DNA from: a virus
Lineage: Duplodnaviria; Heunggongvirae; Uroviricota; Caudoviricetes
DNA length: 29,394 nucleotides
Virus record (IMG/VR): IMGVR_UViG_2690316131_000018
Reading direction: 5' to 3' (one strand)
Part shown: piece by piece, positions 118 to 22,257 of the stretch
How positions within the stretch are numbered: the first letter of the stretch is position 1
Layout: every line of letters begins with the position of its first letter
Notes under the pieces: generated by a model
What the model saw: the letters and a program-made list of their open reading frames with translations, nothing else
The model's database searches: none
Told to the model about the DNA's origin: nothing
Position numbers and translations under genes: made by a program

Positions 118-140
<23 letters not shown>

Positions 141-1359
141 CTAATGCTTTCAGTTCTTCATCTGGCGGCAATAAACCAAGCTTTTGCATTTCAACCTTCA
201 CCCGATTTAATACAGTTCGCATCGCCTGCGCCGTTTCCTGAACAACAGGATTAGCATGCACATCACCGCTTCGCATAGCATTCCCAACCTGCTGACGAAA
301 TGAATCAAAACTCATGTCACCACCATCAGCTTTATACTTTGCGTATGCCTGTTTATTTCCGACAACAACAGCAGCTTCTTCACGCTGCCATCCACGTGTA
401 CGGGTTTCTACAGCTACCGGTGTTTCAATCCCCCTTTCATTTCCTTTAAGGGTGAAATTATTTTCGGCTAACTCCAGCGTTGTTTTTCGCACTGTCTTGG
501 ACGGAGACTCCATTAACCTTGTCAAAGGAGTAAGATAGCTCCCTGCTTTCCATGCAGCCTTTCCAACCACCCCACCGGAAACAGGGGTTAAATCATCCAG
601 AGTCGCTGTATCAATTTTCATAGCACCAACACTACCACCATCAGAAAGCGAAGCGGCAGCCCTGTCAGTCGCTGATGTAATGCTCATATTATCAAGAGCA
701 TCAGCAACCTCACGCGTGGCTGCAGCCCGGACGGATGGCGAAAGCGCAACACCAGCACTGGCAAACACGCCGCTCATCATCGCACCCGCTGCAATGTGAG
801 CGGCACTTTCACCCCATGAGCGTGTTATTTGCTGATTATTCAGCACAACCTCGCTTAATGCTGTACCGGCTGCACCAATCGCAATCTGTGAGCCAATACG
901 CGCCAGTGCCCCTCCTTGAGCACCAGGGATAAACATTGACGCAACAGTAACCGGATCCATTCCCGCAGCAATACTGGCAAGGGTTCCAACTACGCCAGCA
1001 TCAGACAATAAACGTCTGTCTTCATTTTCATCATCTATCTGCTGCTTAATCCACGCCGTTTCCTCTGGCGATCGGGAATCTGCAAATTTCGCCCCCCAGT
1101 ATTCATAACCGTGCAACTCATTTTTATCAGCATATGGGTTATAACCTTCGACCGGTTCAAACTGTCTGGCTGGTCGGAAAAAACCAGCCAGAATATTGTT
1201 CTGTCGCATTGCAGCCCCCCATACGGAAGGCTCCGGTGGCAATGGCTCAGGATTAGCCCCTTCCGGAAGGGCAACATCAAACCCAGTTTGTTCCGGCAAA
1301 ACATTACCTGACGGGATCAGTCCGTTATTAAGATCTTCAGCTTGTGCATAAACTGGCAT
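118..1359 (-). CDS. internal virion/ejection protein; 3' end replaced by IS5-derived sequence (probably truncated)
   Basis: 413-aa ORF whose start overlaps the stop of the upstream gene (TAATG). The last ~7 codons and the stop lie inside the IS element (<=140). Confidence 0.55.
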
Positions 1360-4076
1360 TATTTAGATCCCCACGAAAAGTAATCTTTAAATTTGTCCAT
1401 ACGTTCGTTATGCAGGCGCTGATACTGCTCATCCAGAGCGCGATGCTTGTCTTTGAAGTTTCGTATAGCCTGTCCACGCATAATTTCTTCCTGCTCGTAC
1501 TGCTCCCGTTCCTGCTGCATTTTCTTATAAGGTTCCCAATCTTCTAGTGATGGTTCCCAACGCATAGGACGCCCATGTTTGTTATAAAACGGCTGGACCC
1601 GATCGATGCCATTTTCATCCTTAGTTCTTACCATAATGGCGTAATCACCATTACGAGGTGTTAACACGTCAGGGGTTATGAATAATTCTCCATTAATACG
1701 ACTCTCAGGGGTTTTTGTCTCAACTACAGGAGCATTACCTGACGTGATCCCAAGCAACGTCGGACTGGTTGTTATAATCTCTTTGCGCTCACCGTACATC
1801 AGCCGTTCTTTTTCAGCTTTCCACTGCGCCGCCTGCCAGCCTGACGGCCCATATTGATAAAGCGCCTCCGGTGCATATTTCATAAACTGCGCTTCTCCGT
1901 TAACCTCGCTGATACTCCAGGTGCGGGCTATCTGCTGGTTGGTCATTTGCTTCGCTACGTCAGCGTTACCACCAGCAACGCGGTAGTTAATGTCATACAG
2001 CGTCTGATAGTCATTACGGAATCTAGCTGCTTCCGGCGTCTGGTCATCCGCAGACGGATCCCAACGGAACCACTGCGCCATATTGCTGACAGCAGAATTC
2101 ATCGCCTTGCTGCGATTATTTTTGTACTCTTTTGAACTCTGCGTTGATGCCAATTGAGCTTTAAGAGCATCGGTCTGGTTGTACGTCAGGTTCTGCGCCT
2201 GCTCGATAGCCGCATCAGCAGACATGCCAGAATCTGTTAGTTGCTTAACAGTCAGATAAAAACCCTGCATATCCTTCGGCATATTTCCAATAGATGCATT
2301 GTCTGTTTCATATAACCGACTAAACAAATTCGCTGCATTTTTAACCACTTCCTGATTGCTGGATCTGGATACTGCTGAAAGCTGCGTGATGACCTGCGAA
2401 GGCATGATGCCAGTCTGAGCCACAAGCCGAACAACCCCATCATGAGTGGAGGCATCATTAATACGAAAGTTCTGCGCCATTTCTGTGTAATCAGCAGCTT
2501 TCTGCATTGATTTGTTGCTTGGGTCTAATTTTTCACCTATTGTCAGCGCCTCATTGAATCTGCGTGAATCACGTTGCGCCTGAATTGCTTCATTTGATCG
2601 CTGAAGCAATGCAGACAATTTTCCGTAAGCATCGAGTTTTAACGCATAGTGAGGATCGTTAACCTCAGGCTTCACTTTCTGCATTTCTTCTTGCTGCTGA
2701 GAAGGAGGTAAATACTGAATTGCCTGGAATATTCTCGCGTTATCAATCGCTATATCCAGTTGATTGATTATTTTATCTGCATTTTTTCCATACCCCCTGA
2801 TGATAGTCTCCTGAGCCGGTATATAATCTGGAACCTCACCGTTATATAGCTGGGCCATGGTGTTATTAATAGCTGGCTCAAGCTGTTCTAATATTAACTT
2901 CCTTTGCTTTTCTATCTGACTATTAGCAAGGTTATCTATTTGATAAATAGTCAGCGGATCCATTCCAGTTTTATTTTTTCTATATCGGGAAAGCCACCCT
3001 TGTGTTTCTGATGGAAGATTTCGGATAAATTCTTCTTCTGATATTTCACCTTTACGTGGATCACCGACTTTGGCGATCAGTTTATCCACGTTACCCATCC
3101 CCCAGTTATATGCTGCTCCGGTCAATATTTCGGAGCCGTACTTACCATACAGTTGATTTACATAGTCACTGGCGAGCATTTCATGCTGTTGTTCGTCCGT
3201 AGGGTTGTATTTAACGCCACGCTTGGCCGCCAGTTCTTTCCCTGTGCCCGGCATTAACTGGTATTTCCCCTGGGCTCTCTCTCCAGAAGATGTTATCGGT
3301 CCTTCAAGAAGACTACCATCAGGATTAAAATGTCGATCACCTGATTCAACAAGGCGTATGGCACGCATGTCCATGCCTCCAGAATCATTTTTCTGAAACA
3401 GACCATTTAGCCATCCTTCTGGATTGGCAGCGGCATAATTCTTCGCCCGCATTTCTGTGGCACGGCGATCATCACTTTCTATTTCTTCCAGAATGCGTTC
3501 TTGTGACCATCCCCTGGCAGCTCCATATCTGGCAATGGCTACCATTCTGGAATTTCTGGCTAAAGTGGCAGTTTGCGGGTCATTCCAGGCATCCGCTTCA
3601 TTTTGTATCCATAATTTTCTCGTTGCCTGATATTGCTCATCTTCATAGGCATTTGTCTGCCCTATCTCATGTCTGAGAACTCCAGTACTGAACTGAATTT
3701 TCTGTGTTCTGGCTTGTTGCAAAAACATATTTCTTGCTGCTTCATCAGTCAATGAAGCAGCTATTTCTTCCACATCCTGATCAAATCCAGATATGTACTC
3801 TTGCCCCTTACCAATCGCATTTTTGCCTTGTTGTGCATAAAAACCGGTTTGAGGGTTATAAAGACGTTCATTGCTGCGCTGATTAAGCTGAAGGATGGCA
3901 TCCTGAGACAATGCAACATTCGCTTTCTGCCTGGCTTCACCATATGCCACCGCATACTGATCTGCGACATTCGCCAGCACCTGACCTGCTTGAGGAACAT
4001 CGAAGATCTGAAAACCACCGGTTTGCACACCACGACTTTGCACCTGGCGTCCGGATGTAGTAGGAACAACAGGCAT
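1359..4076 (-). CDS. internal virion protein with lytic transglycosylase (SLT-like) domain
   Basis: 905-aa ORF. Contains an ES...GKYQLMPGT...AAYNWGMGN pattern typical of SLT-family transglycosylases. ATGA overlap with the upstream gene at 4076. Confidence 0.7.
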   Translation of the reverse strand: MPVVPTTSGRQVQSRGVQTGGFQIFDVPQAGQVLANVADQYAVAYGEARQKANVALSQDAILQLNQRSNERLYNPQTGFYAQQGKNAIGKGQEYISGFDQDVEEIAASLTDEAARNMFLQQARTQKIQFSTGVLRHEIGQTNAYEDEQYQATRKLWIQNEADAWNDPQTATLARNSRMVAIARYGAARGWSQERILEEIESDDRRATEMRAKNYAAANPEGWLNGLFQKNDSGGMDMRAIRLVESGDRHFNPDGSLLEGPITSSGERAQGKYQLMPGTGKELAAKRGVKYNPTDEQQHEMLASDYVNQLYGKYGSEILTGAAYNWGMGNVDKLIAKVGDPRKGEISEEEFIRNLPSETQGWLSRYRKNKTGMDPLTIYQIDNLANSQIEKQRKLILEQLEPAINNTMAQLYNGEVPDYIPAQETIIRGYGKNADKIINQLDIAIDNARIFQAIQYLPPSQQQEEMQKVKPEVNDPHYALKLDAYGKLSALLQRSNEAIQAQRDSRRFNEALTIGEKLDPSNKSMQKAADYTEMAQNFRINDASTHDGVVRLVAQTGIMPSQVITQLSAVSRSSNQEVVKNAANLFSRLYETDNASIGNMPKDMQGFYLTVKQLTDSGMSADAAIEQAQNLTYNQTDALKAQLASTQSSKEYKNNRSKAMNSAVSNMAQWFRWDPSADDQTPEAARFRNDYQTLYDINYRVAGGNADVAKQMTNQQIARTWSISEVNGEAQFMKYAPEALYQYGPSGWQAAQWKAEKERLMYGERKEIITTSPTLLGITSGNAPVVETKTPESRINGELFITPDVLTPRNGDYAIMVRTKDENGIDRVQPFYNKHGRPMRWEPSLEDWEPYKKMQQEREQYEQEEIMRGQAIRNFKDKHRALDEQYQRLHNERMDKFKDYFSWGSK

Positions 4077-4651
4077 CAGTAACCTCCTATTTTGAATCGG
4101 GAGTCAGAATTCATAAAACCTGAGTTAGATAACATTGGCGTCCCACCACTAGATGTACTTCCTTTAGAGAACGGACTCCACGTCCCACCAAACATCTGGT
4201 ACGCACCGTATGCCTTCAGAGGCGCGGTGAGCAATGTTGTTGCTGCTCCCACATTCCCCTGTTTACGGGCTGAACTGGCTTCTGCTTTATAGTTGGCAGC
4301 CTGAACCTGATAACCGTAAGCCTCGCGTTGCGCGTTATTCACCGTCGTCAGAGAATCAAGAGCGCCAAACTGGGCAGTGTCGCCAAATATATCCAGCGCG
4401 TTACCTGTAGATAAATCAGCGCCGGTAGCCCCCATTGTCGCCGCCTGTGTACCAAGCCGCTGTCGGGTCTCTCTGCGCCGTTGCTCAGCTTCAGCGTTAC
4501 CTCTGTTTATTGCATCATTTGCCTGAGCTGTGGCTATATCTGCGTTCGCTTCTGCAACCTTCGAGGCATACTTTCCCTGTTGGTACTGGGTGTATGCCTG
4601 AATGCCACTCATGGCGAGCATTGCGCCACCAGCAATAACCGGATCGCACAT
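4076..4651 (-). CDS. internal virion protein (gp14-like by size and position)
   Basis: 191-aa ORF, Gly/Ala/Gln-rich. GGAGAG ribosome-binding site upstream. Stop/start overlaps on both sides. Confidence 0.55.
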   Translation of the reverse strand: MCDPVIAGGAMLAMSGIQAYTQYQQGKYASKVAEANADIATAQANDAINRGNAEAEQRRRETRQRLGTQAATMGATGADLSTGNALDIFGDTAQFGALDSLTTVNNAQREAYGYQVQAANYKAEASSARKQGNVGAATTLLTAPLKAYGAYQMFGGTWSPFSKGSTSSGGTPMLSNSGFMNSDSRFKIGGY

Positions 4652-5115
4652 TATTTTCTCTCCATGTGAAATCTGTGGAAATTAAGACCAAGAGCACCAT
4701 AAGGCGCGGCTTCTTCAAGCCTGAATCCAAGCCAGTGCAGCCATGCTTTGGCAACATGGTTTCGCTCGTCGACATAGTTTTCCAGGCGCGGATAAACTGC
4801 CAGCATCTGCTGCAATACAGGGCGGCAGTGGCGAAGAAATGTCTTCTGATATTTTTCGATACGGCTGGTTCCGACCAGCCAGGGCGTACCATTGCCACCG
4901 ATCATTGACGCCGGAGATACGCCAAACATGGTTACCAGTTCTCCGTTCGCGAACCCTGACCAGGCCATAGTCGCAGTACGCAGGCCAACACGCAGTGCAT
5001 CTTCGGTAGTCATCAGCGATACCGCATACAGTTCTTCAATATCAGCCTGACGAATATCCGGCAAAATCATCTGAAGATGCTCTTCGGTAGCGGGAATAAT
5101 TCGAACATCGATCAT
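4651..5115 (-). CDS. hypothetical virion-associated protein (gp13-like position)
   Basis: 154-aa ORF, ATG start with ATGA overlaps at both ends, inside the structural operon. Confidence 0.5.
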   Translation of the reverse strand: MIDVRIIPATEEHLQMILPDIRQADIEELYAVSLMTTEDALRVGLRTATMAWSGFANGELVTMFGVSPASMIGGNGTPWLVGTSRIEKYQKTFLRHCRPVLQQMLAVYPRLENYVDERNHVAKAWLHWLGFRLEEAAPYGALGLNFHRFHMERK

Positions 5116-7586
5116 CAGAATCCCCCAACAGTAAGGCGAGGAATAACGGCAAGAACAGACAGCGGCAACGGGTCAAGCTGACGGATTTTTACACGTCCGT
5201 TTTTGCCCCAGTTACTGTCCAGTTTCACTTCTACCTTTCCGGTAGCATCATCAACAGGATCATCGTAGAACTCGAATTCACGCTGTGGATATTCGTACCA
5301 TTTACCGCCGGGCGTAGTCGCCCAGATGCCGCGGCTGGCATTCACAACCAGAGTAACGGACGGGATCACCTGTTTTTTGTCCAGCAGCGTTTCCTGTCCG
5401 TTAATGTTGATATCCAGTGTTTCGAATTCAGCAGTTATTGGCAGGCCGATGTGAACTACAGCCCCCGGAGATTCCAGCGTGACGGCACCTCCGGAAACCA
5501 CTTTCTGTGGTTCCACGTTCGCATCAGAGAGAATGTTTACGGTCTGGCCTTCAAGATGAGACAGGCCTCCAAATGTCCGGCGCGCCATCTGCCAGTTCGT
5601 GGTGGCCACATTCCTGAGGGATGGCGGGACGTTCCTGTTAGCACGAACCACTACAGCGGTATTGCTGGTTACAGAAATAATGTCGCAACGTAATTCTTTT
5701 GACACCTCATCACCAGTATCAGGATCAGTTCCGGTATAAGGGAACTGTAGTTGCGCGCCGACATCACTACTGGTGAAGTACGCACCACCAGAAACACTGA
5801 TTGTATATTCCGCGCGGTAATCCCATTCACCAGAACCACCAGTGATGGTCATCGTTCTGTCAGACGTATTTCTTCCATCATAGCTAAGGCCAGAATCAAC
5901 AAAGAAAGCATCTTCATCGCTGGTAAATAAACGGCTGGACAGTCGCTCGATGTATCTCACTGTTTGCCCGTTAACGGTTCGGTTAACGACGAAATACACC
6001 GCATCTTCATTTCCTTCGCTGATACTGCATGTGCTTTCATATTTTCCGGTACTGGATTGTGGTGCCCATGCAAAAACCTGCTGATCACGCAAATAGGTCA
6101 TCACCAGTAATTTACCGTCATCACGAATGCAGAAGGCGCTGGAGTAAGGGACAATAGAGAAGCACCAGTCAACAATACTGTGCTTCTGAAAAAGATGATT
6201 GGCAAGGATGGTCAGGTCGTTCCCCTGATAGCCGTCAACATCGAATGAGTAGGCCAGATCACGGACAACACTGCCTTTCTCCTGGACGAACAGAGCAATA
6301 TTCGCCACGGCAATTGGTGGGACATTGCTCGAGCCATTTGATCCCTGAGAGCTGAATGCAAATGATGATGGGGTAAGCACTTTGTTCTGGTCGCCAGTGA
6401 TGACGTACTCACCTCCGGAAGTCAGCGCCACCAGCGAACCAACATCAATCAGGTGACGGATCTCATTAACCTGACGCCCGGCATAGGTGTAGATAATTCT
6501 GTCGTCATCCTGCGTAGGATTGCTTTTGCCAAAATCCTTATAATCCCCGGTACGGCTGGCCCAGATAGTCTGAGGAAACGCAGTCGATGCGGCGAAGTAA
6601 AGACGTTGTTGATAATAAACAACAGTGCCAGGATAACCATTAACACTGTTCCAGGCATATTTAGCCCATTTATAGCTGGCATTATCCTCGCCCACGACCT
6701 GCGAAGGGATATAGGAAATCACCTCGGCAGTTGCAGTAGTTCCATTTGCAGCAGTGATACGGGCAATGCCAAAACCACTGTGCAGATATTCCCACTCAAT
6801 GCCAGTATCATCATCACCGGATCCGCCCCAGCCATCTCATGATGTGCCTTCTGTATGCGAAGGGCGCAAAGTACCTGTTTTGCCTGCTGTAACGGCGCGA
6901 TAGTAGTTACTGTCTGCACGGCGAATATCGCCAATCGACGTACTCTTACTGGTTTCCCATACCGGCACTGAATCCACTGCAGGCTGTTCCAGATAGAACA
7001 ATTTGCCTACCTGCTCCGCGCCAAAAATAGAGGCGCTTGCCGTTAACGTAATTGTCCCGGTGCTGGCGCTGGCATAAACCGTCACTGACTCGTCAATATT
7101 GATATCTTCAAATGGCCCGTTCTTCGTTACCACATCAACCAGTTGCCAGTTGTCATGAGCATATCGGCGCAACTCTTTCGGCGGGTATGCCGGGTGAACC
7201 AGCGTAAGCACGTCGGCGCTTTGCGTGAATTTAATTCGGAACAGATCGGCTTCAGTATATGGCGTGGCAATTTCATAAATAACATTGCTGCTGTTCAGCA
7301 CCAACGCACCATCTTTGATAACGCGCATGTACTGGTGTCCGAACTCCAGAGCATAGGTCTGAACCGTCGAGAACTCGAACGGGATCAGGCGGCATTTCCG
7401 ATTTGGGTATTTGGCGGCACCGACAAAACGCGTACCAGGTCGATTCTCAACGCCGCCATACTGCCGCACGATAAAGTTATCGCACTTGCGCAATGCTACC
7501 TGGTACTTCGCCATGTCAATACGCCCGTACAACGACGGTCCAATCTCACCACCGGCAAAGCTGGGCTGGATCCAACTGATAGCCAT
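5115..7586 (-). pseudogene. tail tubular protein B-like (T7 gp12-like) gene interrupted by an in-frame TGA
   Basis: ORFs 6837..7586 (249 aa) and 5115..6722 (535 aa) are in the same frame. The 38 codons between them (6723-6836) are all sense; only TGA at 6837-6839 separates them. No ATG or usable ribosome-binding site precedes the second part. The N-terminus (MAISWIQPSFAGGEIG) resembles the start of T7 gp12 from memory, and combined length is ~820 aa. Confidence 0.6.
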
Positions 7587-8194
7587 CAGGACAACCTCGC
7601 AATGGTAAACTCATCAACCGGTGGCTGTGGTTCCTGTGATTCATTCTGGCTATGCGAGCCAGCACTAAGAATCACGCGATTGTACATATTGAGGGCAAAC
7701 GTACCGAGGTCTGCATTCCCAGTCAGCGCCATGTTAATAGCTGCCGCAAGACGCCAGGCCAACGCCTCCATAAAAATGGCATCAAACATGTTCACATCTG
7801 TAACGCGAGAGACATACTTGAGCCATGCCTGAGGCTGGTCTGTGTAGATCAACTTTCCTGTTCCGTTGGTGTCTGCACCAACTTCGTACTGAACGCGCAT
7901 TGCTGCTGTTGGATTGCGTACACCAGGAAGCATAATTTCAGTAATGCGCAGACAATCTGACGGGTACTGGTACGCATATTCCCAGTCAGGCGGTGGATTG
8001 CTCGTATCTGCAAGCGCCACGCGTTTGGTAGCAAAGTTCCAGTCAAAATCAGAAAGCACAGCATCACGACAGGCCTCAAAGTGCAGCGAACATTCCCCCG
8101 CTTCCTTGCTGGCTTCCGTCAGGCTGTTAATGCTGCGGCTGTTGCCAATATTGGACAGCGCACGATTACAGATCTCTACTACAGAGGCCATCAC
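7586..8194 (-). CDS. tail tubular protein A-like (T7 gp11-like) protein
   Basis: ~200-aa ORF. N-terminal pattern ALSNIG...SLTEA resembles gp11 from memory. GGAGG ribosome-binding site; probable ATG at 8191 overlapping the upstream stop. Confidence 0.55.
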   Translation of the reverse strand: MMASVVEICNRALSNIGNSRSINSLTEASKEAGECSLHFEACRDAVLSDFDWNFATKRVALADTSNPPPDWEYAYQYPSDCLRITEIMLPGVRNPTAAMRVQYEVGADTNGTGKLIYTDQPQAWLKYVSRVTDVNMFDAIFMEALAWRLAAAINMALTGNADLGTFALNMYNRVILSAGSHSQNESQEPQPPVDEFTIARLS

Positions 8195-8520
8195 TCACCT
8201 CCGTTACCGTACAGAGTTTCAGCCGCTGATTTTTCTACATCCCCGGAAACAGGAGCGATCGCCATATCAGTGATCTGCAGATCGGCGCTGCGATTAACGC
8301 CATCGTTAGTTTCTCTGGCAGACAGGCCTCGAATAACAGCCTTTGCAGTTATCATCACTTCCGTTCCGACGCCCTTAGGTTGCGCCTTCAGCTTATTCAA
8401 TGTGTCGTTATTAAGAGTGATGCACAGCCCCCACGGGTATTCATCGCGAGTTCTGGTTTCTCCGCTCTCATCCTGGTAGCTGTCAGTGCCGGTTTTGAGG
8501 TTTACGAGTTCCATATACAC
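8191..8520 (-). CDS. hypothetical structural-module protein
   Basis: ORF in the operon; likely true start is the ATG at ~8514, preceded by GGAG. Confidence 0.45.
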   Translation of the reverse strand: MYMELVNLKTGTDSYQDESGETRTRDEYPWGLCITLNNDTLNKLKAQPKGVGTEVMITAKAVIRGLSARETNDGVNRSADLQITDMAIAPVSGDVEKSAAETLYGNGGE

Positions 8521-8564
8521 TCCTGCAATAAAGGGGCCGAAGCCCCTTGTCTGATCCGCGAGGC

Positions 8565-8909
8565 TTACACGCCCAGTTCTTTACGCTTATCTGCGATCTT
8601 CTCGCGGAGCGTTTCGGCTTTGGCGTTATGGTGTGGCTTCTCGTTAAAGAGCAATTCGTACTCTTCACGGAGCTTATCCAGCTCACCATCATCTGACACA
8701 TCGTTGATGATTTTGGTACTGGTTGCTGCCATTGACACCTTTCCTGCTACCTTTGCTTTTGCCTGTCTGGCTGCATCGTTAACAGGTTCCAGTGCGCTAC
8801 CTGGCTCACCTTCGTATTCGATTTCTGCCCCCTCCGGCCACAGAGTGTTATGGATATGAGAGAGGCGCAGAACGCGGTATCTTGGTTTCTCACCTGACAT
8901 CGATATCAC
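8565..8909 (-). CDS. hypothetical structural-module protein
   Basis: ORF; likely start is the ATG at ~8900, with AAGGTGA upstream. Confidence 0.45.
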   Translation of the reverse strand: MISMSGEKPRYRVLRLSHIHNTLWPEGAEIEYEGEPGSALEPVNDAARQAKAKVAGKVSMAATSTKIINDVSDDGELDKLREEYELLFNEKPHHNAKAETLREKIADKRKELGV

Positions 8910-8910
8910 C

Positions 8911-9348
8911 TTAACCAGTTACTTTTGAGCGGATCGGATACGGCGTATTGGCATCAACATCAAGACTGATACCAGCAGTGAATTCGCCAGCCGTTAGTGG
9001 GCCAGTTGCGACGGAGTAGTTAACACGCAGATATCGCTGAACACCGGCAGGCACCTTTGCAGAAACAACTCGTTTACCTGCTGTCAGGGCGGTCTTTGCC
9101 AGTGCACCACTATCATAAATAGTGGTCCATGAGCTGTTATTCTCACTCGTCTGCAACTGGATGTTTACAGTTGCCTCACCACTTGCCGTGGCGGCTTCGT
9201 TAACCAGCGCCCAAAACTCAAGCGGGTAACCCACGCCGATATCACGACGTTTTCCGTCAATTGGACCGAGATCGATTACGTCAGTAGAAGCCGCGGTATT
9301 CGTAACCGCCTGAGCTTCGGAGAACATCAACAGTTTGTCGGTGATCAT
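8911..9348 (-). CDS. hypothetical virion protein (possible minor capsid or decoration protein)
   Basis: 145-aa ORF with ATG start, immediately downstream of the capsid gene and its hairpin. GGAGAAAG ribosome-binding site. Confidence 0.5.
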   Translation of the reverse strand: MITDKLLMFSEAQAVTNTAASTDVIDLGPIDGKRRDIGVGYPLEFWALVNEAATASGEATVNIQLQTSENNSSWTTIYDSGALAKTALTAGKRVVSAKVPAGVQRYLRVNYSVATGPLTAGEFTAGISLDVDANTPYPIRSKVTG

Positions 9349-9363
9349 CTTCTTTCTCCATTA

Positions 9364-9383: not shown

Positions 9384-9399
9384 AGGTTAATAACAGGCG

Positions 9400-10392: not shown

Positions 10393-10400
10393 TTCCTCTC

Positions 10401-13071: not shown

Positions 13072-13085
13072 TTCAATGACTCCGG

Positions 13086-13292
13086 TTACTGACCAAGCAG
13101 CGTTTTACCGCTGGTATTAGCGGTTGATGTGTCGCCCTGAGAACCAGTAAGCAGCGTAGAACTACGACCAGCAGCAGCGCGACGGCGACGTGTTTCTTCG
13201 TCGCGGGCATCAACAACGGCGGCATCCTGCTCCTGTGGTGCTGCCTGAACTTCTGGTGTTGCAGGCACTGATGGTGAGCTACCCATGCACAT
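13086..13292 (-). CDS. hypothetical small low-complexity protein upstream of portal
   Basis: 68-aa ORF with ATG start. Its ribosome-binding/start region (TCAATGACTCCG) nearly duplicates that of the portal gene. Coding status uncertain. Confidence 0.3.
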   Translation of the reverse strand: MCMGSSPSVPATPEVQAAPQEQDAAVVDARDEETRRRRAAAGRSSTLLTGSQGDTSTANTSGKTLLGQ

Positions 13293-13382
13293 ATCAATGA
13301 CTCCGTACGCAATTAAATTATTACCAATTTAACCACATATGATTTATTTATCGTAGGTAGTTGACATTTACCGCACGAATTA

Positions 13383-13397
13383 TTACCTTCAAGGTAA
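13383..13397. promoter_or_regulatory. operator-like palindrome TTACCTTCAAGGTAA, with a TTGACA hexamer at 13361-13366
   Basis: Perfect TTACC-N5-GGTAA in the intergenic region between the portal operon and the tRNA island. A degenerate copy (TTACCAATTTAACCA, 13321-13335) lies ~62 bp away. Confidence 0.45.
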
Positions 13398-13720
13398 CCA
13401 AAGAGCTCATTCCGGTTACTAACCTGACTGGCTTGTCGTTAAATTGAACAGGTGGAGTGAGCTTTTATTTTGAGCAGTACGGCGTATGGCACATGCGACG
13501 ATAGCGGTCTGGATACGTTTAAGGGGGCACCCTCCCTTGCTCGGGCAAACGAACCAGGTAGCCGGAATGTGCAAGTCGAGCGGTTTTATTCCGCGCACGG
13601 GGATACACCATCCCGGCGATTCGGTGTGACGCCTCGGAAGAGACGAGGGTACAACGATGAGAGCATTTATGGAGCCGCGACAAAGTGTGGTGCCTTAACA
13701 GGCTAAGTGCTCTCAGCGTT

Positions 13721-13797
13721 GTGGCATTAGCTCAGTCGGACAGAGCAACCGCCTTCTAAGCGGTTGGTCGCAGGTTCGAATCCTGCATGCCACGCCA
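13721..13797 (+). tRNA. tRNA-Arg (anticodon UCU), phage-encoded
   Basis: 77-nt cloverleaf folded by hand: acceptor stem GTGGCAT/ATGCCAC, D-stem GCTC/GAGC, anticodon stem ACCGC/GCGGT with loop CTTCTAA, T-arm GCAGG-TTCGAAT-CCTGC, discriminator G and encoded CCA. D- and T-arms resemble host argU; acceptor and anticodon stems differ. Confidence 0.85.
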
Positions 13798-13840
13798 GAA
13801 TCACGCCTAAGGACCGTGATGCCAGAAGTTCCAGGTGCTT

Positions 13841-13884
13841 GGCGGTGATGGTTTCCCTTGAAGGGCTATCACCGCCCTTTTTAC
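13841..13884 (+). terminator. rho-independent terminator after the tRNA
   Basis: 9-bp stem GGCGGTGAT / ATCACCGCC with a structured loop, followed by CTTTTT. Confidence 0.6.
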
Positions 13885-13960
13885 AGCAGGACGCCATTGC
13901 GATGACTTCATGCTGTAAACCCGTACAGCCACGGAAGGCATAACTCATTGCTTCCAGTTC

Positions 13961-13985
13961 GCCCGGTTCGCCGGGCATTTTTTTG
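13961..13985 (+). terminator. second rho-independent terminator-like hairpin
   Basis: GCCCGG-TTCG-CCGGGC followed by ATTTTTTT. Confidence 0.5.
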
Positions 13986-14019
13986 CCTGATGACCGCAAA
14001 CTACCTTAAAGGTATAATC

Positions 14020-14838
14020 ATGAAAAAATTCAAGGTAATTAGCATGTTTGAATCGTTCAAAGAGCTGTTTTTATCTACTGCCAATACTGCCGTGAATCGA
14101 GCCAAAAACCCTGTGCTTGGTGCTTTTGTTATGTCCTGGTGCGCCTTCAACTGGAAATCAATTCTTTATCTATTTTTTAGCAAATCAAACATAATAGATA
14201 AAATTTCATATATCTCAGATAACAGCACATGGAAAACTGTTATGTTTTATCCATGCTTATCTGTAATTGCTATCTGCTGCCTATTACCATGGGTAAACAA
14301 TATCATTAACGTATGGCAAGCAAAGCCTCTTGATAATAATGACTCAATCGAAAATCACCTGAAGGCAAGAAAAATCCAGCGTGAAACAAGACTGCAGAGG
14401 TTATTGGCTAAAAAAGATGTTACATACGACAAAGTTAAGACTGGCGCGGAAAAAGACATCCAAGAGATGAAAGAAGAGATTATTCGATCAAAGAATAGTA
14501 TGGGGGAATTGACTGCCGAGTTGAAAGCTAAAGATGACGAATTGAGATCCGCCAGTGCTCAGTTAGCAGCTCTAAATCATTCATTAAAAGAGATATCGGA
14601 AACTCTTGGAAGAATGAATGAGGCATATAAGACCCTCCAAAATGATTTCGACGAATACAAACTCAAATACCCTGAAAAATCTCAAATAAAAAGCCTTGCA
14701 CTTGGCAACGGCCAAACAATTAGCAACTTTTTGGAGCAACACAACTTATCCGGATTAAAATCTGGTAAGCCAAACGTTTTTAATAACTTTGGTGTTCTAT
14801 CTGGATTATCAGGTTTCGAGGATAAAAATAAAGACTAA
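14020..14838 (+). CDS. AT-rich cargo gene: predicted membrane protein with long C-terminal coiled coil, unknown function
   Basis: The track ORF starts at 13948, but the probable start is the ATG at ~14020 (MKKFKVISMF), just after a TATAAT. Two hydrophobic segments near the N-terminus, then a charged heptad-like region. AT-rich versus the rest of the window. Convergent with the terminase gene, stops overlapping. Confidence 0.6.
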   Translation: MKKFKVISMFESFKELFLSTANTAVNRAKNPVLGAFVMSWCAFNWKSILYLFFSKSNIIDKISYISDNSTWKTVMFYPCLSVIAICCLLPWVNNIINVWQAKPLDNNDSIENHLKARKIQRETRLQRLLAKKDVTYDKVKTGAEKDIQEMKEEIIRSKNSMGELTAELKAKDDELRSASAQLAALNHSLKEISETLGRMNEAYKTLQNDFDEYKLKYPEKSQIKSLALGNGQTISNFLEQHNLSGLKSGKPNVFNNFGVLSGLSGFEDKNKD

Positions 14839-16310
14839 GCATATGGATCGTACTCGGTAAGCGCCTTGCCTTGCTGGTTCTGCTGCCCGGGAAGTCGCAG
14901 GCGCTTTGACACCGGGAAAGCAAACGTCAGCAGTAGCGCATCGCCTTTACCAGGAGAACGCCCAAGACGCTCTTTGATATCTTCCTTCGGTTCGATAACG
15001 ATTTTACCGTCCACACGAACTTTGTACTCTGCCGCCGACAGGTCGTCTGCAGTTTCCTGGTCATCCAGCATGCCGCCCAGCCTCAGCCATGTCTTACATG
15101 AGTTGAACATCTCCCCACGCTTGTTAAGCATCTGCGGGTCAGTGGACGCACCGCCGAACGGAACAAGTTGCCATGTACGCCCCCAGCCATCACCGATTGA
15201 CTTCAAACCGGTTCCGTAACCGAAGTCGATGAACACCGCGTCAGCCTGATACTGGTCTTCAAAGTCAGCGATACGCTTCGCCATAATCAGATCGTCAGTG
15301 GTCTTGTTGCCAGTCCACAGCACCTTACTGTGCAGCCCCTGCCGCAGGTATATCGCAGCGTCATCAACACCGGAGTATGCCGGGTCAACGCCGATTATCA
15401 CCGGAGCATGTACCACCTGCGCAGCGGTTACCACCCGTTTCATTGCCTCATCAGTAAGACCGGTAGGGATAAACTGCAATTCAGATGCATCAGGGAATAT
15501 GCCGCGCACACGGATTTTAACGAAGTCGCTGTCTTCCCCGTAGTCATCAACCCATTTCTGCAACTGCTATTTGTTAGTGCCTTCCACCGTCCGGCTGTCA
15601 ATCTGCGCAGTTTTCCAGCGGTGTTTGTATTTGCGGAAACATTCGCGAAAACGCCCGGTGTTACGTGTAGGGTTTCCGAACGCCACCCAGATAATCTCAG
15701 TGTCTTCGTCCGTAAGAGCACCCTCAGCAACTTCCCACACCAGATCCGCAATGTTCGACGCTTCATCAAATACCACGATGATGCGTTTGCGCTCGTTGTG
15801 TAGTCCGGCGAATGCCTCAGTGTTGTGCTCAGACCAGGGTATTGCGTCAGCCCGCCACCGCTTGTCGTGCCCAGGGTCATTGCTGTACATCGCGGTAGCG
15901 GTACAGGTAAACCAGTCTTTCGTGATGGCAAGGTTCGACCACTTGATAATTTCCGGCCAGGTCTTCGTTCGTAGCTGGTTGTCGGTGTTGGCGGTCACCA
16001 CGACCTTACAATCCTCGCAAGTGGACATGCCCCAGTTGATCAGCATTGAGATGAATGCGGATTTACCAATACCGTGACCAGAAGCGCGTGCCAGCATAAG
16101 CGGCTGATAGCGCGTCTCTGGATTCTGCAGGTGATCACGTATCTCTCGGAACGCATCGGCCTGCCACTGACGTGGACCGGTAGCATGTGCCAGTTCAGTC
16201 CCCTCTTCCCCCCAAGGGAACGCATAGAGGGCATAGCCAAGCGGATCGTGAGTGAACCCTGCAATATCTTCGATTAACTGCTCTTCAGGAGATAACGCTG
16301 CATCTGTCAC
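14835..16310 (-). pseudogene. terminase large subunit interrupted by an in-frame TAG
   Basis: ORF 15567..16310 has Walker A (GHGIGKS) and Walker B (IIVVFDEAS) motifs; ORF 14835..15563 has a nuclease-like Asp-rich region. Both are in one frame, separated only by TAG at 15567-15569 plus one sense codon. The second ORF starts at TTG, not ATG. Confidence 0.7.
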
Positions 16311-17017
16311 TGATTACCATCCTGACGTTCTTTGAGTCGCTTCCTGGCTGCTGCTATGCGATCAGCAATTGTCACATTCACATTAACATCCAGGCGTTCT
16401 TTGAATGCGTTGACGTCGACGTGCTTACCGATGAGCTCGAGGTTTTTCACCTTGTCGGGCCATTTCACCTTCTTCAGGATATGCTCGACATCCTCAACAG
16501 AGAGATCCGCCTCGCCATTCTCTTTTTGCAGGGAAGCCTGGGTTGTCTTGATGGTAGCGATATCCATAGCACTGAGAGAGGTACGCCAGACCTTCGGCCA
16601 TTCAGTGATCGGCTTCATCCCGCCGTCATCGTTCAGTATATCCAGCACGTCCATCTGGTCTATTTCCACCAGGCGCATGAGAACGTAATCAGCACTGACG
16701 CGCATTCGTTTGTTGCGCTCCTCCATCAACTCGGCAATCCGTTTTTGAATGCGTTCATCGCGCATCATGACACTGGCTTTAACTGCCGCTGTATTTGGAG
16801 AGAATCCTGCGTTAATCGCTGCCTGAGTCTGGTTTTCAGGCGTTTTGATGTATGACTGGCAATAAGCCTCCTGCATTGCTGTTAGTGGCTTAAATTGCGT
16901 TGATTTGCGTTTATAGGTTTTAGGTTCAGCAGGCATCATAACCACCCTGGTAATTGTTACCGTCGTGGTAATAGTAACATGCAAAATAAAGCCGCCATAG
17001 TTGGCGGCAGTATTCAA
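16307..17017 (-). CDS. terminase small subunit
   Basis: Motif AYCQSYIKTPENQTQAAINAGFS is typical of phage small terminases. Probable start is the ATG at ~16939 (MMPAEPK); the longer track N-terminus would run through a terminator and operator. Confidence 0.65.
   Translation of the reverse strand: MNTAANYGGFILHVTITTTVTITRVVMMPAEPKTYKRKSTQFKPLTAMQEAYCQSYIKTPENQTQAAINAGFSPNTAAVKASVMMRDERIQKRIAELMEERNKRMRVSADYVLMRLVEIDQMDVLDILNDDGGMKPITEWPKVWRTSLSAMDIATIKTTQASLQKENGEADLSVEDVEHILKKVKWPDKVKNLELIGKHVDVNAFKERLDVNVNVTIADRIAAARKRLKERQDGNQ
16957..16971. promoter_or_regulatory. operator-like palindrome TTACCGTCGTGGTAA just upstream of the terminase genes
   Basis: Perfect TTACC-N5-GGTAA between the terminator (16981-17008) and the small terminase start (~16939). 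Confidence 0.45.
16981..17008 (-). terminator. rho-independent terminator between the nin-like block and the terminase genes
   Basis: GCCGCC-N6-GGCGGC hairpin followed on the - strand by TTTATTTTG. Confidence 0.5.
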
Positions 17018-20545: not shown

Positions 20546-20622
20546 TTACCTCTGAGGTAATTAAAAACCACATAAGACACGAAATCAATAGATTTTAGAA
20601 TATTTTATTACCTAACAGGTAA
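20546..20622 (-). promoter_or_regulatory. repressible promoter for the nin-like block, flanked by two operator palindromes
   Basis: On the - strand: operator TTACCTGTTAGGTAA (20608-20622), then -35 TTGATT (20583-20588), 17-nt spacer, -10 TTTAAT (20560-20565), then operator TTACCTCAGAGGTAA (20546-20560) abutting the -10 and containing the ribosome-binding site for the ATG at 20542. Confidence 0.5.
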
Positions 20623-20659
20623 TTGTCGAGGCGTAAAAAAATGCGCTATCGCGCTGGTA

Positions 20660-21460
20660 TTACTTGATAAATCCTGCCGCCTTTCCTCGCCTGTATTCCT
20701 CCATCAGCCACTGCGCCGGTGTTATTCCACCAAGGGTGGCGGCGTTAGGCATGCACCCGAAACTTCGCCCTGGTGGATGGTAAACGTCTCTCCCTGTGTC
20801 CGGAGGTGTACTCATGGGTTCTGGCTTTGCCTGTATGCTGATCACCGGATCGGGTATCTGCTGTCCGGAAGCCACCTTTTTCGCCCAATCATCGAGCAGC
20901 TTGCGCGCGTGTTTCTCAACCTCAATCTCGCTAAGCTGGCGCTGATACATTGCACGGCGGGTATCACATACGACCCAGTACATAACCGGATGTCGCCACG
21001 GGAATCTTTCGGGACCACCAGGATATAAACTTTTTTCCTTGCTGTACCGGTTAAACTCCGCCATCACATCGTCAATGGTGACGCCAAGAACCATCTTGCT
21101 GTCTTTACACCACTTGATGAATTGCCCAGGCGACGGCCAGAACGGAGATTCACTGGCGCGGGCGTGGCGCATACCAGCAGAAACCTGTTCACGGGTTCGG
21201 ATCCCCCCTTCGGCAAACGCAGCAATCCACTGCTGTTTTGCAGCAACTTCCTGCTCTGGCGTCTTCAGGTTGGTTACCACTGCCGCCGGAAACAGTTGTT
21301 TCAGCTGTTTGAAAAGGGCATCAACAAGCCTCTCTGCTGACATGTTCACCACGTTATCATTGTTGGTGTACTGATGCTCATAACCTGACATGCGAGAAAG
21401 GGCTTCTCCGTCACGGTTTTGTATCGCGGTAAAAACGTTGTTCACAAGAAATCCTCCCAT
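20660..21460 (-). CDS. lambda P-like replication protein (helicase loader)
   Basis: Central region closely resembles lambda P from memory (WIAAFAEGGIRTREQVSAGMRHARASESPFWPSPGQFIKWC; LYPGGPERFPWRHPVMYWVV). Probable start is GTG at ~21445, preceded by GGAGGA and overlapping the O-like stop. Confidence 0.75.
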   Translation of the reverse strand: MGGFLVNNVFTAIQNRDGEALSRMSGYEHQYTNNDNVVNMSAERLVDALFKQLKQLFPAAVVTNLKTPEQEVAAKQQWIAAFAEGGIRTREQVSAGMRHARASESPFWPSPGQFIKWCKDSKMVLGVTIDDVMAEFNRYSKEKSLYPGGPERFPWRHPVMYWVVCDTRRAMYQRQLSEIEVEKHARKLLDDWAKKVASGQQIPDPVISIQAKPEPMSTPPDTGRDVYHPPGRSFGCMPNAATLGGITPAQWLMEEYRRGKAAGFIK

Positions 21461-22257
21461 GCTTCAGGGCTGTTCCTGTGCGGAACGTTGTTATCAGGTA
21501 ATGTTGATTGCTTCTGTCTGCTAATCTGCAGCCTCCTTGCCAGCTTCTGCTCCCACTGTGCCTGATGGTATGCCTTACCCTCAGCCATCCAGTAAATTCT
21601 GAACTCTGCAAGTTCCTGTGCCGTTGGCAGACTGTCCAGGTAGATCCCCTGCAATGAGCTTTTCCGAAGAAAGTCATCTGATGGCTGCCATTGTTCATGC
21701 ATGACAAATTTGCCTAATTGCCCTGGCCCACCAGGAGGAACAAAGTTATTCATCACGGCGTTGTTTGCGCCGGGGTCATGAGGCACAGAATCCCCGCTTT
21801 TTGTCCTGCTCTCCCTCTCTTGGTTAAATGACTGGTTATATGACTGGTTCTGGATCCCGTTTTTGGGATCATTCAACATCCCGTTTTTGGGATCATTCAA
21901 CATCCCGTTTTTGGGTATATTCCCGTTTTCGGTAACATTACCGTTTTCGGGTTCATTGCCCCCCTCCAGGTTGCCTTTAATGTTCCCGTTTTTGGTTATA
22001 TTAAGAGAGAAAACCCGCACTCTTTTTGTCGCTCCCTTTCTCTCTCCGGTATCTGAAATAAGCCCCATTTTCATGAGCGATATAAGCCCGGCCTGCACGG
22101 TTTTTTTATTCAGGCAAGTGTCTTTAACGAGGCGTTCTATGCTGGGGTAGCAGAGGTTATATTCATCGGCTCTGTCAGCCATCGAGAGCAGTATGAGCTT
22201 TAATGATGAGCTACCTGGATCTGTCTCCCAGGCCCAATCTGTTGCATGTCTGCTCAT
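21442..22257 (-). CDS. lambda O-like replication initiator
   Basis: 271-aa ORF with an N-terminal HTH-like region, internal repeats (NGMLNDPKNG) encoded by iterons, and position directly upstream of the P-like gene. ATG at 22257 with GGAG ribosome-binding site. Confidence 0.7.
   Translation of the reverse strand: MSRHATDWAWETDPGSSSLKLILLSMADRADEYNLCYPSIERLVKDTCLNKKTVQAGLISLMKMGLISDTGERKGATKRVRVFSLNITKNGNIKGNLEGGNEPENGNVTENGNIPKNGMLNDPKNGMLNDPKNGIQNQSYNQSFNQERESRTKSGDSVPHDPGANNAVMNNFVPPGGPGQLGKFVMHEQWQPSDDFLRKSSLQGIYLDSLPTAQELAEFRIYWMAEGKAYHQAQWEQKLARRLQISRQKQSTLPDNNVPHRNSPEAWEDFL
21854..22002. repeat. origin-type iterons inside the O-like gene
   Basis: Two tandem 24-bp copies of ATCCCGTTTTTGGGATCATTCAAC followed by degenerate copies. 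Each has an internal inverted repeat (ATCCC...GGGAT) and resembles lambda ori iterons. Confidence 0.65.

Follow-up and report, generated by a model that had tools for sequence, protein, structure and literature searches.

The stretch of DNA analysed here, 29,394 nucleotides from a tailed phage and hereafter called the window, raises the question of where a virus that seems to unite lambda-like early genes with a T7-like particle belongs. The original prediction had read it as a mosaic, in which lambda-type replication and immunity were joined to a T7-like podovirus virion module. The features on which that reading was built are real, as the block of open reading frames, the iterons and the phosphatase could all be located. 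However, the correct label would be that of a defective prophage of the epsilon15/phiV10 type and not of a new lambda-T7 hybrid, and the locus has little significance past annotation. With a probability of about 90%, we hold that the window represents an epsilon15/phiV10-type prophage with a T7-related tail and ejection set and a non-T7 head, and that this copy is defective.

Identity and nearest relatives

Judged by its sequence, the window comprises the greater part of a temperate podovirus genome that is integrated as a prophage and belongs to the epsilon15/phiV10/TL-2011b type, that is, to Uetakevirus (of which phiV10, epsilon15 and PAS61 are species) and its close relatives. Its top match is Escherichia phage TL-2011b (NC_019445), with 97.5% identity over 77% of the first 25 kb, and phiv142-3, PAS61, ZX5 and phiV10 show 97-98% DNA identity to the window; across this set of phages, the identity extends over most of its length. 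The gene order is collinear with the TL-2011b annotation through the integrase, replication, terminase, head, tail and internal virion genes. Positions 118-22257 form a contiguous minus-strand block which, read from 22257 downward, holds the initiator, the P-like loader, nin-like small genes, the small and large terminase genes and the portal gene; after these come the protease, capsid and decoration genes, a pair of tail genes and four genes for internal virion proteins. In 495 E. coli genomes, 80% or more of the 11.4-kb segment running from the nozzle to the terminase genes (5000-16400) is present. This prophage type is already known and well described in E. coli, and its architecture, far from being a new mosaic, is the standard one of a named and sequenced phage group.

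Several differences set the window apart from TL-2011b. Its initiator allele is that of phiV10 and not that of TL-2011b or ZX5, gp23 of TL-2011b is replaced by a 296-aa low-GC ORF, and the position of the TL-2011b DUF1382 gene is occupied by a NinI-type phosphatase. Moreover, TL-2011b has intact nozzle, terL and gp16-like genes, whereas the window copy carries W250*, Q248* and an IS5-family insertion in their place. With epsilon15, the window shares 76% DNA identity over the head-tail genes (tail to portal, window 4178-13397), the capsid family PF20911 and a Gp10-like staple, while megablast no longer detects the diverged epsilon15 early region or the largest two of its internal virion genes. 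Two features of the epsilon15/phiV10 type fall beyond the ends of the window. The region corresponding to the O-antigen tailspike lies past the IS with which the contig ends, and the site for integration at the guaA 3' end (attP attgagtgggaatgatt) lies past the integrase end. The remainder of a TL-2011b-type prophage, namely the 3' part of the gp16-like gene, the Arc/Ant region, gp48 and the lysis genes, is also outside the window.

Lesions in this copy

Four features bear on the state of this copy:

1-139, no strand assigned: end piece (139 nt) of an ISKpn26-like element of the IS5 family, where the source contig also ends; 100% identity
118-1359, minus: truncated gp16-like internal virion protein (IVP-D), 413 of 1004 codons; phrog_342
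5115-7586, minus: tail nozzle gene of the T7 gp12 fold, 823 codons (2472 nt), pseudogene; fold and profile matches
14835-16310, minus: large terminase gene, pseudogene; intact TL-2011b homologue in phrog_2 and phrog_5902

Both premature stops are single transitions. The nozzle gene has an in-frame TGA at 6837-6839 (W250*) and the large terminase gene an in-frame TAG at 15567-15569 (Q248*), where TL-2011b has TGG and CAG, respectively. The protein of about 820 aa in the original prediction therefore corresponds to a real gene of 823 codons but not to an open frame; the two stops and the IS had been missed. As to the insertion, 2259 E. coli records contain regions that are 100% identical to window 1-139 and annotated as 'IS5-like element ISKpn26 family transposase', and homology to TL-2011b begins at position 140. 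The gp16-like ORF represents the first 40% (5' end) of a gene of 1004 codons, and its last ~7 codons run into the IS. All remaining ORFs of the window are intact. The truncated products, that of TerL included, turn up again in independently made assemblies and in read sets and so cannot be put down to mistakes in one draft. One related sample retains an intact nozzle gene, and related samples hold the lesions in different combinations.

Given W250*, Q248* and the IS in the gp16-like gene, this prophage copy should be defective and is predicted neither to package DNA nor to build an infectious tail; readthrough or suppression of the TGA and TAG codons could yield some full-length protein. It is conceivable, although we regard it as unlikely, that the remnant has been domesticated and is kept by the host lineage for superinfection immunity or an accessory function. 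Such a reading can be entertained because the structural genes are decaying while the early, regulatory and accessory genes are intact, and because the combinations of lesions vary. The intact set comprises the repressor, the integrase, RecT/YqaJ, an MT-A70 methylase, the NinI-type phosphatase, a tRNA-Arg gene and the 296-aa ORF.

That the prophage is still functional, its stops being tolerated through suppression, readthrough or complementation and its IS lying where the gene can spare the sequence, is very unlikely. The lesions are few, each stop is one transition away from a sense codon, the other ORFs are intact, and the nozzle gene survives in a related sample. However, three independent lesions affect the terminase, the nozzle and the gp16-type ejection protein, all of which are essential in podoviruses; the IS takes ~600 of 1004 codons out of the reading frame; and the stepwise lesions across related samples follow the usual pattern of prophage decay. 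If the copy is defective, as we prefer to think, the lesions should serve to mark lineages, and they lead to the prediction that induction would yield no infectious particles.

Head, tail and ejection proteins

Apart from the large terminase pseudogene, the packaging and head genes are as follows:

8191-8520, minus: capsid decoration ('staple') protein of the epsilon15 gp10 type; PF21628 Gp10-like, 8e-52
8911-9348, minus: Bbp16-family capsid cement protein; PF21190 Bbp16, 2.5e-48
9400-10392, minus: major capsid protein, epsilon15/BPP-1 type; PF20911 GP7, 2.1e-149
10401-11102, minus: prohead protease candidate; phrog_458 'protease', 1.7e-110
11392-13071, minus: portal protein, T7 gp8 family; PF12236, 624 bits
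16307-17017, minus: small terminase subunit; PF03592 Terminase_2, 7.2e-28

The predicted relation of the portal to T7 was borne out, as PF12236 is common to the window portal and T7 gp8, which scores 379 bits in it. The portal also shows reciprocal PHROG cross-matches 332/449 with T7, and it matches 8ck0_A (Carin-1) at 5.7e-179. The idea that the whole virion module is T7-like, on the other hand, does not hold. To go by protein families, the head is not T7-like, since its capsid, protease and decoration/cement proteins follow the epsilon15/BPP-1 type; the terminase, too, is of a non-T7 type. Against PDB chains, the capsid matches 3J4U (BPP-1, 9e-129), 8CJZ (2e-87), which belongs to the deposition series of the Carin-1 tail entries 8CK0/8CK1, and 3J40 (3.6e-85, chain named gp7), which we take to be the epsilon15 capsid. 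In contrast, the T7 gp10 capsid belongs to PF21703, another Pfam family. The protease candidate gave no Pfam or NCBIfam match, and NCBIfam returned zero matches for any virion protein of the window. The intact TerL of TL-2011b matches phrog_2 and phrog_5902, but neither T7's phrog_38 nor PF22530. By family, none of the head, protease, decoration and terminase proteins of T7 is related to those of the window, and the T7 terminase genes come last, whereas the terminase-first order noted in the original prediction is indeed present here.

Besides the two pseudogenes already listed, the tail and ejection genes are these:

1359-4076, minus: 905-aa internal virion protein with an SLT lytic transglycosylase domain, in the T7 gp15 position; PF01464, phrog_1044
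4076-4651, minus: gp14-family internal virion protein B, 191 aa; PF24072 T7_gp14
4651-5115, minus: gp13-like internal virion protein A, 154 aa; phrog_308, 2.8e-62
7586-8194, minus: tail adaptor of the T7 gp11 fold, 202 aa; AF2 model and Foldseek

The gp11 and gp12 folds proposed for the 202-aa and 823-aa proteins were confirmed by Foldseek (E 3e-6 and 4e-25, TM ~0.55-0.6). The adaptor model (pLDDT 87.5) aligns over its full length with T7 gp11 (E 2.8e-6, TM 0.59-0.61), matches ~25 podovirus adaptors at E<=1e-3, and matches the Carin-1 connector at E 2.4e-16 with a fold TM of 0.84. The nozzle model (pLDDT 90.8) aligns, also over its full length, with T7 gp12 chains (E 4e-25 to 6e-22, TM 0.50-0.56), and the nozzle matches that of Carin-1 (8ck1_A) at E 4.5e-218, with 44% identity and a TM of 0.90. 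Sequence identity to the T7 tail is 10-14% in the structural alignments. No sequence-level match between the adaptor and T7 was found with Pfam, BLASTP/phmmer or hhalign to T7 gp11, and a 29-sequence adaptor profile found no T7-type chain among PDB sequences; the adaptor link thus rests on predicted structure. Neither the adaptor nor the nozzle has a Pfam match at E<=0.01, including to Tube (PF17212) and Phage_nozzle (PF25675), which T7 gp11 and gp12 themselves match strongly. As word-indexed homologue searches yielded close relatives only (adaptor, identity of at least 49%; nozzle, at least 82%), an exhaustive HMMER search was used for the nozzle profile. This profile aligns by hhalign to T7 gp12 349-466 (P 7.9e-6; swapped controls at least 0.05), a region that overlaps the conserved centre of gp12, 354-556, of Hardies et al. 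(PMC4819975).

The closest solved structures for the portal, adaptor, nozzle and capsid are those of the Cobetia marina phage Carin-1 (8CJZ, 8CK0, 8CK1) and the Legionella phage LME-1 (9EFK), which differ in hosts and genomes and are related to the window at the protein level only. Entries 8CK0/8CK1 were assigned to Carin-1 from the fold-search description and the LME-1 paper (PMC12407071), whose authors call the tails of both phages T7-like in architecture; a literature search on these two PDB codes returned nothing relevant. The relationship to T7 is not new, as Tail B and the internal virion proteins of epsilon15 were linked to T7 by HMM-HMM comparison in 2016 (PMC4819975), and it is now seen in the solved structures of Carin-1 and LME-1.

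A gp13-16-like set with a transglycosylase had also been predicted, and this stands for gp13, gp14, gp16 and the SLT domain. T7 gp13 is likewise in phrog_308 (1.1e-42), and T7 gp14 is in PF24072, which the 191-aa protein matches with 33.7 bits (cut-off 27) over positions 1-182 of 187. The truncated protein belongs to phrog_342, the T7 gp16 family (fragment 2.9e-75), as does the intact TL-2011b gp38 (4.8e-210), which covers profile positions 203-1225 of 1235; compared with T7 gp16, the window-type homologue is without positions 1-200. By BLASTP, the product of 118-1359 matches T7 gp16 298-426 (E 0.003). For gp15, position and very weak BLAST matches suggest that the 905-aa protein is the equivalent. 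Its SLT domain (residues 263-342; 30.1 bits, cut-off 21.3) matches T7 gp16 13-142 (SLT) by BLASTP at 2e-4; it lies mid-protein in the gp15-position protein, whereas that of T7 is at the gp16 N-terminus. The gp13, gp14 and gp16 homologues stand in T7 order after the nozzle gene, together with a virion-borne transglycosylase.

The BLASTP comparison with T7 proteins that had been proposed as a check, extended with phmmer and run with 16 virion proteins of the window and 15 proteins of T7, yielded significant similarity for the SLT domain alone, besides the weak gp16 match, so pairwise sequence comparison cannot settle the T7 question. The tail proteins did not match siphovirus or myovirus families. 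Taken at the level of folds and families, the tail and ejection set of T7 and that of the window group are of ancient common ancestry, while the head, terminase, replication and lysogeny modules share no ancestry with T7. The window is a clean worked example of a temperate enterobacterial podovirus whose adaptor, nozzle and ejection proteins are related to those of T7 at the fold level, with a head and terminase from a different lineage.

It is highly improbable that the virion module belongs to the T7 family proper, as an Autographiviridae-type particle to which a lambdoid early region was joined in recent times. Such a particle would explain a PF12236 portal shared with T7 gp8, the gp11/gp12 folds, the family links to gp13, gp14 and gp16, and a portal-to-gp16 gene order as in T7, but not the insignificance of pairwise similarity outside the SLT domain, the failure of the adaptor and nozzle to match T7's own Pfam families, or the different type of capsid, terminase and prohead protease. 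In addition, a phage RNA polymerase is absent both from the matches of the window ORFs and from the complete annotation of TL-2011b, an integrase and a repressor are present, and the closest solved relatives are Carin-1 and LME-1, not T7. Nor would the join be recent, because a sequenced phage group has kept the arrangement in full. As for the portal and capsid families PF12236 and PF20911, neither is, to our knowledge, the family of the P22 portal or capsid. A P22-like particle, that is, a terminase-first tailspike podovirus with a gp4/gp10-type tail, has next to no chance of being correct: the gene order, the temperate lifestyle, a TL-2011b Arc/Ant region like P22 immI, and the clustering of epsilon15 ejection proteins with P22 for gp14 and gp16 (PMC8954989) speak for it, but P22 gp4 reaches only E 0.38 and TM 0.33 against the adaptor model, and P22/Sf6 gp10-type chains (E 3e-8 to 3e-6, TMq 0.22-0.28; P22 gp10 itself E 3e-8, TMq 0.28) fall far behind T7 gp12 (E 1e-22 to 4e-25, TM about 0.54) against the nozzle model.

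Replication, immunity and accessory genes

The genes and sites of early functions and of the other prophage arm are listed here, together with a tRNA gene located between the portal and terminase genes:

20660-21460, minus: P-type helicase loader (lambda P); PF06992, 1.5e-56
21442-22257, minus: replication initiator with an N-terminal HTH_36 and a C-terminal DnaT domain, containing the origin; Pfam, phrog_1032
21857-21995, no strand assigned: iteron array of six CCGTTTTYGG cores inside the initiator gene; repeat search
22624-23593, no strand assigned: divergent immunity switch (Cro-like gene, operator-like repeats, repressor); HTH_3, PHROGs, repeats
22624-22854, minus: Cro-like 76-aa gene, part of the switch
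22922-22951, no strand assigned: operator-like repeats TTACCTGTGGGGT / TTACCTGTTGGGT; repeat search
23009-23593, plus: repressor gene; HTH_3 at residues 106-147
27476-28135, plus: NinI-type Ser/Thr phosphatase; PF00149 Metallophos
28138-29394, minus: tyrosine integrase; Arm-DNA-bind_3, Phage_int_M and Phage_integrase
13721-13797, plus: tRNA-Arg(TCT); ARAGORN

The likeness to lambda comprises the P loader, origin iterons within the initiator gene, the NinI phosphatase, the divergent repressor/cro layout, and 60% identity of the lambda Ea22 N-terminus to its window counterpart. Of the lambda-like O/P pair originally predicted, P is upheld by 31% identity to lambda P (E 5e-34), but O is not. The initiator, with its HTH_36 and DnaT domains, matches phrog_1032 at 1e-106 and 'O-like' PHROGs more weakly (7.6e-19 and below) through its N-terminal domain, and it gave no BLASTP match to lambda O and no O-family model among Pfam matches at E<=0.01. 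The iterons are genuine, with six cores seen where chance would give 0.08; three 24-nt units, of which two are identical, lie side by side, and more degenerate copies come after them. In a lambda/Stx search, the replication module was shared at the DNA level with 17 phage records only, each of them either a phiV10-type phage or an unclassified phage of E. coli, which places the lambdoid relationship at the protein-family level only.

Lambda-type immunity could not be substantiated. The switch matches phrog_35 and phrog_8, but the repressor has no LexA/S24 domain match in Pfam, and BLASTP finds no match among lambda CI, Cro and CII for the repressor, the Cro-like protein or the protein in the CII position. 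In contrast to lambda CI, in which an N-terminal HTH is combined with a C-terminal LexA/S24 domain, the window shares only the divergent layout with repeated operator-like sites. The phosphatase is 67% identical to lambda NinI and matches the serine/threonine protein phosphatase 1G5B, presumably that of lambda, at E 6.9e-100. It lies outside 118-22257 on the other arm of the prophage, where it adjoins int, whereas in lambda it is part of the nin region. In this phage group, repression is lifted by an anti-repressor, as was shown for phage ZX5 (PMC9782041).

Mostly by homology, the working of an intact relative may be pictured as follows. The tyrosine integrase would insert the phage, the HTH repressor without a self-cleavage domain would keep it silent, and an anti-repressor would release it. 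The iteron-binding initiator and the lambda-P-type loader would then bring host DnaB to the origin within the initiator gene. A two-subunit terminase would fill an epsilon15/BPP-1-type capsid, matured by the protease and braced by the Gp10-like and Bbp16-like proteins, through a gp8-family portal. The short tail would be built from the gp11-fold adaptor, as a dodecamer, and the gp12-fold nozzle, as a hexamer. The gp13-, gp14-, gp15-position and gp16-like proteins would be packaged in the head and ejected on infection, the SLT domain cutting peptidoglycan and the channel being extended across the envelope.

Among the accessory genes are the MT-A70 methylase, RecT/YqaJ, which differ from the Exo/Bet recombination genes of lambda, and the low-GC 296-aa ORF. 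PADLOC hits of this ORF to DndD/LmuB/JetC (E 3e-5 to 9e-3, 12-21 bits), proteins that carry long coiled coils, were set aside as compositional.

The prophage and its relatives

The window is a copy of a named, well-sequenced temperate podovirus type, as is evident from its identity to and collinearity with Escherichia phage TL-2011b (NC_019445) and from the Uetakevirus membership of its relatives. In megablast searches, TL-2011b matched the first 25 kb of the window at 97.5% identity over 77% of its length, phiv142-3, PAS61, ZX5, HEMP4, and phiV10 matched the same 25 kb at 97-98% identity, and Salmonella phage epsilon15 was 76% identical over the tail-to-portal genes (4178-13397). The genes run collinear with those of TL-2011b in its RefSeq annotation, and the genus Uetakevirus includes the species phiV10, epsilon15, and PAS61. 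Of the 11.4-kb stretch with the nozzle-to-terminase genes (5000-16400), 80% or more is present in 495 complete E. coli genomes. The phage-collection matches of window 1-25000 include 65 Synechococcus phage records, which, at a guess, may stem from the tRNA gene. The layout is as follows.

118-22854, minus strand: long gene block
13721-13797, plus strand: tRNA-Arg(TCT), lying between terminase and portal, with the structural genes on the other strand
13948-14838, plus strand: 296-aa ORF, between the large terminase gene and the tRNA, on the opposite strand
23009-28135, plus strand: divergent gene block
26537-27479, plus strand: PerC-family transcriptional activator homolog (99 aa), directly followed by an MT-A70-type DNA methyltransferase (220 aa)
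28138-29394, minus strand: integrase gene, closing the window

The original prediction had singled out this genome as a mosaic of lambda-type replication and immunity with a T7-like podovirus virion. The elements that it listed are all present, with corrections to the position of the phosphatase, stops in the nozzle and large terminase genes, and an IS-cut ORF, but the architecture is already known and is standard for this phage group.

T7 relationship of the virion proteins

Likeness to T7 was assessed protein by protein, by pairwise search and then by profiles and folds. In BLASTP and phmmer comparisons with T7 gp6.7-gp19, the virion proteins gave no significant pairwise match except for the SLT domain and a weak gp16 match, so that profiles and folds had to decide the question. 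The portal protein and T7 gp8 fall in the same Pfam model, PF12236 (624 and 379 bits, respectively), and cross-match each other's PHROG (332/449) at 1e-23 to 1e-31. The 202-aa tail adaptor has no Pfam match, T7 gp11 falling in PF17212. When its AlphaFold2 model (29 homologs; mean pLDDT 87.5) was searched against the PDB with Foldseek, the top match was the 'connector' of the Cobetia marina phage Carin-1 (8CK1_E, E 2.4e-16, TM 0.84), followed by Legionella phage LME-1 (4.4e-9) and, third, by the T7 gp11 adaptor 7BOX_M (2.8e-6, TM 0.59-0.61, full length). Around 20 further T7-type tail tubular protein A chains also matched (PhiM1, P-SCSP1u, KP32, Kp7, Kp9, HRP29, SU10, KHP30), and P22 gp4 gave no better than E 0.38.

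The 823-aa nozzle protein has no Pfam match either (T7 gp12 falls in PF25675), and it matches the Carin-1 'tail nozzle' at 4.5e-218 by sequence. An exhaustive HMMER search returned 18,263 representative clusters at E ≤ 1e-3, and the nozzle family is therefore very large. In the PDB, a 40-sequence nozzle profile matched the cyanophage A4 'tail tubular protein B' (1.2e-8) and another phage nozzle (3.2e-5); with hhalign it aligned to T7 gp12 349-466 at 84% probability (P 7.9e-6), against P ≥ 0.05 for swapped controls. In the fold search, the model (pLDDT 90.8, pTM 0.87) matched the Carin-1 nozzle (TM 0.90), LME-1 (8e-44), and next the T7-type nozzles including T7 gp12 (7EY9, 9JYZ, 6R21, 7BOY; E 4e-25 to 6e-22, TM 0.50-0.56, near full length), behind which came P22/Sf6 gp10-type chains (3e-8 to 3e-6, TMq 0.22-0.28). 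The virion results agree with the HMM-HMM comparison of Hardies et al. (PMC4819975), in which epsilon15 gp12 strongly matches the central domain of T7 gp12 (354-556), and with the account of the LME-1 structure (PMC12407071), whose authors describe the Carin-1/LME-1 tail as closely like that of T7 without sequence similarity.

From the portal through the adaptor, the nozzle, and the gp13-, gp14-, gp15-position, and gp16-like genes, the order is that of T7. The 154-aa protein and T7 gp13 share phrog_308 (2.8e-62 and 1.1e-42, respectively), and the 191-aa protein covers the whole Pfam T7_gp14 model, the family of T7 gp14, at 33.7 bits vs a curated cut-off of 27. The 905-aa protein (1359-4076, minus strand) carries an SLT domain at residues 263-342, and its residues 224-354 match T7 gp16 13-142 (SLT) at E 2e-4 in a 15-protein database (BLASTP/phmmer); outside this domain, its link to gp15 consists only of position and weak BLAST matches. 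The truncated last gene weakly matches T7 gp16 298-426 (BLASTP/phmmer) and belongs to phrog_342, the T7 gp16 family. Its intact TL-2011b homolog (L001 4206-7220) covers phrog_342 positions 203-1225 of 1235 (4.8e-210), the N-terminal transglycosylase part being missing. With the first ~200 profile positions missing from the gp16 homolog and an SLT domain present in the 905-aa protein, it follows that in this clade the protein before the gp16 homolog, rather than the homolog itself, bears the lytic domain. Whereas T7 has its transglycosylase at the N-terminus of gp16, here it lies in the middle of the gp15-position protein.

The resemblance to T7 does not extend to the head or to the packaging enzyme. 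The capsid protein belongs to PF20911 (the epsilon15 GP7 family), T7 gp10 to PF21703, and its matches among solved capsids are 3J4U, the BPP-1 head (9e-129), 8CJZ, deposited in one series with the Carin-1 tail entries (2e-87), and 3J40, whose chain is named gp7 and which we take to be epsilon15 gp7 (4e-85). T7 has a scaffold without a protease, whereas the window has a protease-family gene (phrog_458). A Gp10-like staple, a Bbp16-family cement protein, and a Bbp19-like protein are also encoded. The large terminase belongs to phrog_2/5902, not to T7's phrog_38 or PF22530, and the small subunit is a Terminase_2 protein. The T7-like virion of the original prediction therefore stands for the tail and ejection proteins, which are deeply related to those of T7 (PF12236, the gp11/gp12 folds, and the gp13/gp14/gp16 families), but not for the capsid, protease, and terminase. 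For the portal, capsid, 202-aa, and ~820-aa proteins, which it had proposed to compare with T7 gp8, gp10, gp11, and gp12, the portal family and the adaptor and nozzle folds bear out the likeness, whereas pairwise BLASTP and the capsid family do not.

The early region and accessory genes

The early region is only partly lambda-like. The helicase loader belongs to the lambda P family (PF06992, 1.5e-56; 31% identity), and, as in lambda, the initiator gene contains the origin. The predicted iterons are borne out by six CCGTTTTYGG cores in 139 nt (21857-21995) within this gene, 0.08 being expected; the array opens with three contiguous 24-nt units, two of which are identical, and continues with more degenerate copies. 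The NinI-like phosphatase (27476-28135, plus strand; Metallophos), which adjoins the integrase, is real, being 67% identical to lambda NinI across 217 residues and matching 1G5B, a serine/threonine protein phosphatase that is presumably lambda's, at E 6.9e-100, but it lies outside the 118-22257 region in which it had been placed. The lambda-type reading thus holds for the P loader, the iterons, and NinI, but not for the initiator, which has HTH_36 and C-terminal DnaT domains, no BLASTP match to lambda O, and weak matches to 'O-like' PHROGs via the N-terminal domain only.

In DNA sequence, only phages of the same phiV10-type group share the replication module. The O/P module (20600-22300) is shared whole at 98% by phiV10, phiv142-3, and PAS61; in TL-2011b, ZX5, and HEMP4 the match is limited to the first 35% of the queried segment (20600-21190), which falls inside the P-like gene. 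The initiator allele of TL-2011b and ZX5 differs from that of the window, so that modules are exchanged within the group, and the initiator gene is itself mosaic within it.

The proposed lambda-type immunity did not hold. The 194-aa repressor has an HTH at residues 106-147, no S24 domain was found in it, and BLASTP against the lambda counterparts gave no match for this protein, the Cro-like 76-aa protein, or the 87-aa protein in the CII position; the likeness is limited to a divergent layout with repeated operator-like sites (22922-22951). In the close relative ZX5, control by this repressor and an anti-repressor was shown by overexpression (PMC9782041). The Arc/Ant region of TL-2011b, the counterpart of this anti-repressor control, has its position beyond the IS end of the window.

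The PerC-family homolog and the MT-A70-type methyltransferase (PADLOC MTase_II, 2.5e-77) lie in the early-left arm, beside the phosphatase and the integrase. The 296-aa ORF, situated in the lowest-GC kilobase of the window (0.39 vs ~0.50), belongs to phrog_4780 (unknown function), has no Pfam match, and weakly matches DndD, LmuB, and JetC in PADLOC, all three being proteins with long coiled coils. At the corresponding site TL-2011b has another, shorter gene, and the ORF looks like a moron of unknown function.

Lesions of this copy

The '~820-aa protein' is not encoded by an uninterrupted frame. In the nozzle gene (5115-7586, 2472 nt), the codon at 6837-6839 reads TGA instead of the TGG of TL-2011b (W250*), and in the large terminase gene (14835-16310), TAG at 15567-15569 replaces the CAG of TL-2011b (Q248*), both stops being in frame. 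ORF 118-1359 corresponds to the first 40% of a gene of 1004 codons, which is cut at position 140, where an IS5-family element ends; positions 1-139 are 100% identical to an ISKpn26-like member of that family. In the draft assembly GCA_001284925.1, contig CYDD01000008.1 begins with the window, whose left end, inside the IS, is the contig end; the sequence beyond is unassembled but need not be absent.

The 249-aa nozzle fragment occurs also in GCA_001285885.1 and ERR15728851, and the 247-aa TerL fragment in GCA_001285885.1, ERR137821, and SRR21357613. Because the truncated products recur in other assemblies and read sets, the lesions are real, inherited, and gained stepwise. The gp16-like gene is IS-truncated in SRR29313759, GCA_001284925.1, and GCA_001285885.1, among which the W250* state of the nozzle differs, the read set SRR29313759 having an intact 823-aa nozzle gene. 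The nozzle stop probably arose later than the IS insertion, and the differing lesion sets in related samples suggest stepwise decay and a possible lineage marker. Judging from the sequence, a copy with these three hits, in the terminase, the nozzle, and the ejection protein of gp16 type, should no longer produce particles.
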